Shown piece after piece: positions 21,402 to 21,747 of a stretch of DNA of 32,000 nt. A program made the position numbers and the translations under genes. The notes under the pieces are model-generated. The model was given only the letters and a program-made list of their open reading frames with translations, did no database searches and was not told the origin of the DNA. The DNA is taken from the NCBI GenBank assembly GCA_963699255.1, contig OY969425.1, forward strand, positions 1,020,001 to 1,052,000. The letters run 5' to 3'. How positions within the stretch are numbered: the stretch's first letter is position 1; every line of letters begins with the position of its first letter. Source of the stretch: an uncultured bacterium. GTDB taxonomy: Bacteria; Margulisbacteria; WOR-1; CAVSGV01.

Positions 21402-21474
21402 GGGGCCGTAGTTCAGCTGGGAGAACGCTTGACTGGCAGTCAAGAGGTCGGGAGTTCGATCCTCCCCGGCTCCA
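21402..21474 (+). tRNA. tRNA-Ala (anticodon GGC)
   Basis: Hand-folded cloverleaf: acceptor GGGGCCG/CGGCTCC with the G3:U70 alanine identity pair, D arm GTTC-AGCTGGGA-GAAC, anticodon arm CTTGA-CTGGCAG-TCAAG, T arm GGGAG-TTCGATC-CTCCC, and discriminator A. CCA is not encoded. Confidence 0.95.
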
Positions 21475-21605
21475 TTTTATCTAACAAGACTAATTAATAG
21501 CAGTAATAACAGGAAACCTCCCTGCCCCGACCTGGGAAAAAGTGGGAGGCTCCGCCGAGCATAATGCGAGGTGGAGGGAGAAAAAACGGGAGTTTTTTCT
21601 CAGGG

Positions 21606-21692
21606 GGAGCGGTCCCGACTTTGTCGGGACGTTGAAGGGGGCAAAGCCCCCTCAAAGAAAGGTCTTGAGTTCGATCCTCCCCGGCTCCACCA
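21606..21692 (+). ncRNA. tRNA-like element (degenerate tRNA-Ala paralogue, no anticodon loop, encoded CCA)
   Basis: 21660-21689 is 28/30 identical to tRNA positions 21445-21474 (variable loop, T arm and 3' acceptor) and is followed by CCA (21690-21692). GGAGCGG (21606-21612) can pair 6/7 with the 3' acceptor strand. The D-arm position holds an 8-bp hairpin (21612-21630). The anticodon-arm position holds TTGA...TCAA extended into a closed 10-bp GC hairpin with an AAA loop (21632-21655). Confidence 0.5.
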
Positions 21693-21747
21693 ACCTTTCG
21701 GGTTGGAATGTCAAATGACCAATTACAAATGACAAATTAAGGAAAGA

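Follow-up and report, generated by a model that had tools for sequence, protein, structure and literature searches.

The window, by which we mean the whole 32,000-nt stretch of DNA analyzed here, holds at positions 21523–21692 a gene-less copy of an undescribed family of folded elements of about 200 bases. In our best reading, the family is specific to Margulisbacteria and targets tRNA and tmRNA genes for insertion at their 3′ ends, and its copies are either miniature elements or the retained right arms of tRNA-targeting islands. For the window copy itself, we lean toward a tRNA-targeting integrative element of miniature size, with selection acting on its folded core. Full-text searches of the literature found no description of such elements, and Rfam 15 returned nothing but tRNA at gathering score in the window or at related loci. 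Whatever its role, this is a structured family that is absent from Rfam and unannotated.

The element behind tRNA-Ala(GGC)

The features of the locus are collected in Table 1. The original prediction described a tRNA-Ala(GGC) without an encoded CCA, followed by hairpins and a second copy of the tRNA 3′ end. Both ARAGORN and Rfam recognized this tRNA, which is the "target" of the window's element, with TTTTA directly after A73 and no encoded CCA. It contains G3:U70, as read from the sequence; the predicted absence of a G·U pair therefore holds for the pairing drawn for a second, tRNA-shaped module, but not for tRNA-Ala itself. A repeat search agreed with the second copy: the direct repeats 21445–21474 and 21660–21689 are identical at 28 of 30 positions, including a 23-nt exact run, and CCA continues the second copy only. 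Both substitutions of the tail fall in the T-stem 5′ strand. The anti-tRNA segment is complementary to AGGTCGGG at 21445–21452, comprising the variable loop and T-stem 5′ strand of the adjacent tRNA-Ala.

Table 1. Features of the tRNA-Ala(GGC) locus, in window coordinates
Feature	Positions	Strand	Basis or remark
tRNA-Ala(GGC), intact	21402..21474	+	ARAGORN; Rfam RF00005, 64.9 bits
AT-rich spacer/trailer between tRNA-Ala and the element	21475..21522	+	Unalignable between elements
Anti-tRNA segment CCCGACCT	21526..21533	+	Reverse complement of AGGTCGGG
Conserved purine-rich single strand GGGAAAAAGUGGGAGG	21534..21549	+	Almost invariant in alignments A2 and A4
Helix P1, CUCCGCC...GGUGGAG, tip insert of variable length	21550..21576	+	Covariation
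Helix P2, GGAGAAAAAAC-GGGA-GUUUUUUCUCA, GGGA loop conserved	21577..21602	+	Covariation
Junction GGGGGAGCG, consensus GGGGGAGCAG	21603..21611	+	Seen beside every tRNA type
P3-P4 two-hairpin cassette, GUCCCGAC-UUU-GUCGGGAC then UUGAAGGGGGC-AAA-GCCCCCUCAA	21612..21655	+	Model R2
Tail repeating the tRNA-Ala 3′ part from variable loop to A73 (28/30 identical), plus encoded CCA	21660..21692	+	Repeat search
CCAACC-UUUC-GGGUUGG hairpin, overlapping the CCA	21690..21706	+	Sequence and fold
AT-rich heptamer array, AATGTCAAATGACCAATTACAAATGACAAATTAAGG...	21707..21747	+	Dispersed repeat

Most of the predicted hairpins were present, namely those at 21550–21576, 21578–21601, 21612–21630, and 21632–21655, whereas that at 21517–21549 is not a conserved helix; its 3′ strand belongs to the conserved purine-rich single strand. 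The CCAACC/GGTTGG hairpin at 21690–21706, also predicted, was confirmed in sequence and fold, and comparable hairpins overlapping the CCA occur after tmRNA copies. The + strand from 21512 to 21706 folds with −96.8 kcal/mol (z = −4.4 versus dinucleotide shuffles).

The spacer resembles the native tRNA-Ala trailer of a relative (G003) weakly in local alignment (p ~0.03 versus shuffles); in contrast, the flank after the tail has no native look. No terminator consensus was found between tRNA-Ala and the element. The heptamer array lies directly 5′ of the FAA-hydrolase start codon; it occurs in about 15 copies in this genome and in many in relatives, and it stands upstream of the element at locus L081 and at genome position 1054 kb. 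The gene order around the window copy is housekeeping in character: RsfS, tRNA-Ala, the element, FAA hydrolase, a tRNA_bind protein, PgeF, and PPDK. The insert of about 215 bp contains no ORF, and the immediate neighbors include no recombinase, as the original prediction had stated of mobile-element genes in general.

A conserved core and its leader cassette

BLAST against 40 relatives matched window positions 21525–21696 to loci other than tRNA-Ala. From 12 BLAST-matched stretches, a covariance model with 138 positions and helices P1, P2, and P4 was built (R1), and the conserved core of about 130 nt was placed at window positions 21523–21664. R1 detected the core in 24 of 146 Margulisbacteria genomes, patchily distributed and with one to five copies each; G125 carries four, G104 up to five (four to five in the two), and G021 three. 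Tandem arrays of elements exist, and G029 has identical copies at two tRNA-Gly genes. An exact-pattern scan of reference genomes gave matches solely in Margulisiibacteriota/WOR-1/Saganbacteria assemblies, and also in eight unlabelled JGI metagenome contigs, several of which duplicate loci of those genomes. A viral origin of the core was rejected, as the same scan gave no match in viral contigs.

Among 28 aligned copies, paired cells amounted to 96.2%, and double-sided changes occurred in 18 of 27 base pairs, which was reached by none of 500 shuffles; slid registers of the alignment gave nothing near the observed covariation. The changes are spread over all three helices: P1 has double-sided changes in four of its six pairs, with 92.8% of cells paired; six of the 11 pairs of P2 are compensated, with 96.8% of cells paired; and P4 is compensated in eight of 10 pairs. 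Core pairs include 24 G·U against five A·C, indicating that the tRNA-sense strand is the folding strand. Unpaired motifs are conserved as well, namely GGGAAAAGAUGGGAGG, the GGGA loop of P2, and GGGGGAGCAG, and a small P5 hairpin is often present at the 3′ side of the core, before the tail. These data demonstrate that the tRNA-sense strand of the core is under selection for its fold. R1 is a working model, suitable for annotating Margulisbacteria genomes and for locating the boundaries of islands.

A coding role on the opposite strand, as an alternative recombinase C terminus in the circular form, was also considered, and was dismissed because six copies have stops in all three frames. At the G015 junction built in silico, an opposite-strand frame is open for about 62 codons, this strand being simply A-poor. 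Given the six copies with stops in every frame, the A-poor strand, and hairpin indels that are not multiples of three, the core is not coding.

The P3-P4 part of the core recurs by itself. The cassette motif, GGGGAGYRG-hairpin-CGUUGA(G)GGGG-loop-CCCCUCAA, is present at about eight sites in this 1.77-Mb genome, and its hairpin 1 shows compensatory changes. A covariance model of the cassette (R2) gave 10 matches at about eight distinct sites in this genome and more in relatives, mainly within this bacterial family. Lone cassettes precede the mature 5′ ends of tRNA-Met and tRNA-Phe by 25–32 nt, and others lie before tmRNA in G021 and within the 23S-5S spacer, directly 5′ of 5S rRNA; they also open the 5′ UTRs of recA, hup-like, and tautomerase genes, immediately 3′ of a −10-like AATGAATATT. 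The lone copies before tRNA, 5S rRNA, tmRNA, and recA indicate that P3-P4 is a transcript-leader module and not, as first proposed, a D arm and an anticodon arm remodelled into compensated stems.

Nor did the rest of the cloverleaf drawn at 21606–21692 hold up. ARAGORN made no call there, and no Rfam tRNA match appeared even at E values up to 10. The presumed acceptor 5′ strand, GGGGAGC, is the conserved scaffold motif GGGGGAGCAG, which is present whichever tRNA is the neighbor. A tmRNA or permuted-tmRNA reading of the module was rejected, with scores of 13 and 11 bits against a gathering threshold of 47; the 13-bit alignment spans the tmRNA model end to end but skips 276 of its positions. The true tmRNA lies at genome positions 1534080–1534436 and scores 172.7 bits. 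A T-stem-like helix between GGGGGAG and the C-rich T-stem strand of the tail is the minimum-energy pairing in the window, yet it is not cognate-specific (371 versus 362 ± 9.6, permutation p ~0.2), and the acceptor helix originally drawn is a different pairing. The tRNA decoy or mimic preferred at the outset is not supported in the form drawn: its parts are a generic cassette and an invariant junction motif, and the T-stem-like pairing of that motif showed no tRNA-specific covariation. Overall, the original prediction was partly supported: its sequence features are real, but the cloverleaf is not supported.

Insertion behind tRNA and tmRNA genes

The element is an insertion, for which close relatives provide precise empty sites. 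In G003 and G004, tRNA-Ala(GGC) is followed after 11–25 nt by the same FAA-hydrolase gene, where this genome has about 270 extra bases. Similarly, a TPP riboswitch directly follows tRNA-Glu(TTC) in G002, whereas at L076, L078, and L081 an element and a duplicated GATTCCCCGTGGGGCTA(TTTT) lie between tRNA-Glu and the TPP riboswitch. At these three orthologous loci the spacers, of 8, 33, and 80 nt, cannot be aligned, while the core persists, its P1, P3, and P4 showing compensatory changes. Retention of the core in this manner while the spacer decays indicates that purifying selection acts at these sites.

An intact tRNA or tmRNA gene on the same strand ends 23–155 nt upstream in about 21 of the 28 copies. 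The neighbors are tRNA-Glu (CTC, TTC), tRNA-Ala (GGC, three times), tRNA-Gly (GCC, TCC, CCC), tRNA-Gln, tRNA-Tyr, tRNA-Met, and, in G002, tmRNA; two further neighboring tRNA genes had no ARAGORN call. At about 17–20 other loci, a direct repeat of the neighbor tRNA's 3′ part stands behind the core; it usually measures 14–34 nt, in one case 60 nt, and sometimes extends into the trailer or terminator. Downstream of this genome's tmRNA are two tandem 254-nt units, each containing a P3-P4 cassette and closing with a copy of the tmRNA 3′ end. A reverse-transcribed origin of the CCA-bearing tail fits only the window and G002, and was discarded; elsewhere the CCA is in the gene and not in the tail. 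That, together with repeats that enter the trailer or terminator (up to 34–60 nt), points to copying at the DNA level.

The other flank is matched to the same gene. Directly 5′ of the conserved GGGAA, 8–15 nt are the reverse complement of the neighboring tRNA, the target being the variable loop and T-stem 5′ strand, the T-loop, or, once, the 3′ strand of the T-stem together with the acceptor strand. The tmRNA-linked copy of G002 has CCCACGTCCG, the complement of CGGACGTGGG in tmRNA. For 19 elements, the longest complementary runs summed to 170, versus 109 ± 6.4 with permuted tRNAs, and none of 20000 permutations reached 170. Where tail and tRNA differ, the anti-segment fits the tRNA better than the tail. 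Comparing the window copy at tRNA-Ala with that at the G002 tmRNA, we found that the cores are 81% identical while both flanks are switched. In G029, each tail has the T-loop variant of the tRNA at its own locus. Spacers between tRNA and element are unalignable between elements; terminator hairpins lie between tRNA and core at L059 and L060, and other spacers are too short for a promoter. A −10-like TAGAAT/TAGAAA is conserved about 13 nt before the anti-segment at L078, L081, and genome position 1054 kb.

One copy belongs to a much larger element. In G015, core and tail end a 12.6-kb island at tRNA-Glu that is bounded by a 19-nt repeat. The island's first gene, adjoining tRNA-Glu, encodes a large serine recombinase (LSR), whose frame ends in the antisense tRNA and whose product is 67% identical to this genome's LSR at tRNA-Glu(TTC); all four LSR genes of this genome adjoin tRNA genes. 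At genome positions 1054160–1053965 (minus strand), an insertion of about 43 kb at tRNA-Glu(TTC) ends with GGAATCGAAC-AGAGT-AGGGCTA-TTTTTTT. Beyond this end stands the native gene, which at the empty sites of G004 and G001 is the immediate downstream neighbor of tRNA-Glu. This end is a core-less version of the same junction. Placement at an island end is thus demonstrated for one copy (G015), and L052b, L054, and L082 resemble it, while about 21 of the 28 copies are mini-elements. The conserved island-end sequence upstream of the core at L077, L082, and L054 had no Rfam match. The spacers of mini-elements, considered as remnants of the left end of an LSR island, showed no similarity to it, and this idea was abandoned. 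No LSR was found in G125 or G021, which carry four and three cores, respectively. In G000, G125, G104, G021, and G029, we found no IS110-type DEDD recombinase (PF01548), no TnpB-type nuclease (PF07282), and no reverse transcriptase (PF00078).

Among the three original explanations, att-like repeats come closest to this evidence. The empty sites, the more than eight other tRNAs plus tmRNA, the tandem arrays, and the G015 island all speak for attachment sites, whereas the conserved, covarying core shows that the copies are not meaningless scars.

Competing explanations and known systems

In the explanation that we favor, each copy combines three parts: 8–15 nt in antisense to the T-arm region of the neighboring tRNA, the folded core of about 130 nt, and a direct repeat of the 3′ part of that tRNA. 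The direct repeat would represent the attL and attR of site-specific integration into the region between the T-loop and the 3′ end of the tRNA gene, probably carried out, in at least some lineages, by the tRNA-targeting LSRs that are abundant in the phylum. The core may then be the terminal right-arm module of LSR islands. Its transcription outward across the attachment site is probable, given that the cassette forming its 3′ half is one ordinarily found in transcript leaders. Once the element is circular, such a transcript would enter the recombinase gene in antisense orientation, the recombinase gene of these islands having its end within the antisense tRNA; from an integrated element, the transcript would continue into host DNA. 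The mini-elements could be either islands without cargo or non-autonomous passengers mobilized in trans. The core may act as a transcript running outward or in antisense, as part of the architecture of the recombination site, as a guide, or as a host RNA.

Several observations fit this explanation poorly. A simple att model leaves the anti-tRNA segment unexplained, as well as its better match to the tRNA than to the tail, and one conservative crossover would not give the G029 tails with the T-loop variants of their own loci. The native-looking trailer follows the first tRNA copy and not the tail, which is the opposite of the classical attL/attR expectation. Furthermore, the window copy has no nearby recombinase, and G125 and G021 carry multiple copies without a detected LSR. 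Long-term conservation at fixed loci, finally, could equally mean a host function.

Such a function would be that of a small RNA of about 170–200 nt, tied to its tRNA and modulating the maturation or turnover of that tRNA. It would arise either from a promoter of its own or as read-through of the tRNA gene; its 5′ antisense segment would base-pair to the T-arm region of the cognate tRNA or its precursor, while its tRNA-like 3′ end (acceptor 3′ strand, sometimes CCA) would engage RNase P, RNase Z, or the CCA-adding enzyme. The strongly covarying sense-strand fold suits such an RNA, as do the persistence of the core at orthologous loci with decaying spacers, an anti-segment that tracks the tRNA rather than the tail, and a 3′ half formed by a cassette usual in transcribed leaders, the 23S-5S spacer included. 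The −10-like hexamers at L078, L081, and genome position 1054 kb would also agree with it, as would the lack of a terminator consensus from tRNA-Ala to the window's element. However, it would be unusual for a housekeeping regulator to occur patchily, in 24 of 146 genomes, and beside a different tRNA from lineage to lineage, and the same loci are empty in close relatives. Terminator hairpins separate tRNA and core at L059 and L060, and the T-loop of a mature tRNA is poorly open to antisense pairing. We therefore regard a tRNA-linked small RNA as unlikely, though worth keeping in mind.

It is rather improbable, in our estimate, that the core is a programmable scaffold on which the 5′ antisense segment and the 3′ sense tail specify the tRNA gene, either as a guide RNA or as a folded single-strand site that programs recombination. 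Each segment would base-pair with a different strand of the tRNA gene, one on either side of the crossover, in the manner of the loops of bridge RNA or seekRNA, or of the folded attC and CTX attP(+) strands, and the core would bind protein. A conserved scaffold flanked by two target-specific segments, opposite in polarity, is what such a guide would look like; the fold is strand-specific, and both flanks were re-targeted between the closely related cores at tRNA-Ala in the window and at tmRNA in G002. Nevertheless, genes for IS110-type recombinases, TnpB, and reverse transcriptase were not found in the five carrier genomes searched, LSRs are not known to use guides, the tail is explicable as duplicated target, and the distance from the anti-segment to the tRNA varies widely. 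If true, one family would re-target at least nine tRNA and tmRNA genes, an undescribed nucleic-acid-guided targeting without the known guide-dependent enzymes (IS110, TnpB, and reverse transcriptase were not found). By contrast, we give hardly any credence to a decaying tandem tRNA-Ala duplicate or to chance hairpins beside a tRNA fragment. The 28/30 repeat by itself would fit decay, and this genome has other short loci in which a tRNA, an unrelated insert, and a 3′ copy succeed each other, but the tRNA 5′ half has left no trace, and homologous, covarying copies of the core stand at 28 or more loci beside many different tRNAs. This recurrence and covariation refute the decaying duplicate that the original prediction had listed as its third alternative.

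tRNA genes are classic landing sites of mobile DNA, and the pieces left behind are normally taken as inert scars. Here, a covarying 130-nt module persists at tRNA sites across a whole uncultivated phylum and is tailored on both sides to its tRNA. If it is recombination or control machinery, it would represent a new way for integrative elements to handle the attachment site; if a guide, a new programmable targeting principle; and if a host RNA, a new class of tRNA-linked regulator.

Compared with guide RNAs, the family shares with the bridge RNA (seekRNA) of IS110/IS1111 a structured noncoding stretch of about 130–180 nt at an element end and two short target-matching stretches of opposite polarity. 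Unlike in the bridge RNA, these stretches lie at the RNA ends and not in internal loops, no Rfam or sequence similarity was found, and PF01548 was not detected in five carriers. The omega RNA of TnpB/IscB and the retron ncRNA differ likewise in that PF07282 and PF00078, respectively, were not detected in the five carriers searched. Integron attC and CTX attP(+) resemble the core in being strand-specific, in conserving helix structure beyond sequence, and in lying at element boundaries, but the core has long, strictly conserved single-stranded purine motifs, and dependence on an integrase or Xer would be hypothetical here. The tRNA-like domain of tmRNA, too, has a T-arm, an acceptor 3′ strand, and CCA at its 3′ end, and it gave a weak Rfam alignment; the module nevertheless scored 13.1 bits against the threshold of 47 and has no tRNA-specific acceptor 5′ strand, and its similarity results from the copying of tRNA-Ala. 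As a functional analogy only, lambda sib and antisense control of transposase also place a structured element across the attachment site from the recombinase gene, so that their linkage depends on the integrated or excised state. The selected fold here, however, is on the strand opposite the recombinase mRNA, and the likeness is wholly inferential.

Closer in form are the CIMEs of streptococcal ICEs and MITEs, which are likewise small, gene-less, multi-copy, and bounded by the recombination-site repeats of a larger family. The present elements differ from them in that their ends are not fixed but change with the neighboring tRNA, and mobilization in trans is only a candidate; an autonomous relative of the mini-elements was seen once (G015). 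With LSR elements such as phiC31, Bxb1, A118, and SPbeta, the likeness lies in the G015 island, which starts with an LSR running into the antisense tRNA, and in the four LSR genes of this genome, which adjoin tRNAs; the window copy, on the other hand, has no nearby LSR, and none was found in two multi-copy carriers. The attP sites of LSRs are about 50 bp long and need no folded arm of 130 nt.

Islands and prophages in tRNA 3′ ends are bounded by attL/attR direct repeats that begin in the T-loop or the anticodon loop and extend as far as the 3′ end. The framework for such insertions in tRNA and tmRNA genes is reportedly that given by K. P. Williams in Nucleic Acids Res in 2002. The present family agrees with such islands in that the element lies directly 3′ of an intact tRNA or tmRNA, the tail copy starts in or before the T-loop, empty sites are precise, and one 12.6-kb member has a recombinase. 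It departs from them in that most copies are gene-less, about 150–300 bp long, and built around a covarying folded core, in that an extra inverted piece of the tRNA is present, and in that one related core serves at least nine tRNA species.

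The two-hairpin cassette and the heptamer array

The cassette of about 50 nt that forms part of the core, the conserved folded element behind tRNA and tmRNA genes, was found also on its own, with its two hairpins laid out as GGGGAGUAG-hairpin-CGUUGAGGGG-loop-CCCCUCAA. It was located 25–32 nt upstream of tRNA-Met, tRNA-Phe, 5S rRNA and tmRNA genes, the 5S rRNA case lying within the 23S–5S spacer of one related genome (G002) and the tmRNA case in another (G021). Furthermore, recA, hup-like and tautomerase genes have 5′ UTRs that open with the cassette, which is immediately preceded there by a −10-like AATGAATATT. 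The cassette looks like a portable promoter-plus-leader unit.

A dispersed AT-rich array of CAAATGA-type heptamers, with the end AAATTAAGG, occurs in the window, at about 15 other sites of the genome and in many relatives. It adjoins tRNA genes and sits immediately 5′ of start codons, and probably represents a promoter or an UP-type region.

Coordinates of the features described (genome, the source genome; window, the analyzed stretch)
Feature	Sequence	Position
Two-hairpin cassette	genome	233599, 911400, 911491, 1534587, 1534841, 1762956; 1547569(-), 1209710(-)
Two-hairpin cassette, further loci	L083-L094	
AT-rich heptamer array	window	21707-21740
Tandem units behind the tmRNA gene	genome	1534437-1534944
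tRNA + insert + 3′-end copy loci, and tRNA-Met fragments	genome	1461219-1461400, 1565128-1565330, 635364-635650, 942100-947100
Stretch behind tRNA-Glu(TTC)	genome	1053965-1096801
tRNA-Glu(TTC) inversion	genome	1096730-1099025
tRNA-Glu(TTC) inversion	G003 contigs C109, C5	
Two cores of L052	G125:C25	15062-17483

Other 3′-end copies and the tRNA-Glu(TTC) region

Behind the tmRNA gene, at a site outside the window, stand two 254-nt units in tandem. Each terminates in a CCA-bearing copy of the 3′ end of tmRNA, and a hairpin, CCATGAAGT...ACTTCATGG, begins at each CCA; the final copy is diverged and carries no CCA. Further short loci consist of a tRNA (tRNA-Gln(TTG), tRNA-Met or tRNA-Gly(CCC)), an insert of 75–105 nt and a tRNA 3′-end copy, the inserts being unrelated; the tRNA-Gly(CCC) locus has a tandem 87-nt unit. 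At two of them the copy fits another isoacceptor, the tail behind tRNA-Gln(TTG) being similar to tRNA-Gln(CTG) and that behind tRNA-Gly(CCC) to tRNA-Gly(TCC/GCC). A region near 942–947 kb is also bounded by tRNA-Met 3′ fragments.

About 43 kb, beginning about 2 kb past the window end, separates tRNA-Glu(TTC) from the gene found immediately behind it in the relatives G004 and G001. Besides tyrosine-recombinase-AAA genes, the stretch contains a serine recombinase adjoining the tRNA and a conserved island-end sequence that it shares with locus L082 and with G015, a relative whose core and tail close a 12.6-kb island. Relative to a TPP-riboswitch gene, tRNA-Glu(TTC) is inverted in G003, G004, G001 and this genome versus G002 and loci L076 and L081, with one breakpoint at the tRNA 3′ end.

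Unusual tRNA and core arrangements in relatives

At L018 (G003:C5), a copy of the tRNA-Ala 5′ half, GGGGCCGTAGTTCAGCTGGGAGAACGC, lies just upstream of tRNA-Ala(GGC), followed by a CCCGATGGAATCGGGG hairpin where the anticodon arm would be. At L032 (G008) and L059 (G106), ARAGORN made no call for the target tRNA, which ends in ...CCGGGGAGCCA; this gene may be split by an intron. The L052 locus carries two cores 2.2 kb apart, with a Nudix-like ORF of 255 aa between them and a second tRNA-Tyr 3′ copy preceding the second core, a layout that resembles a cassette array.
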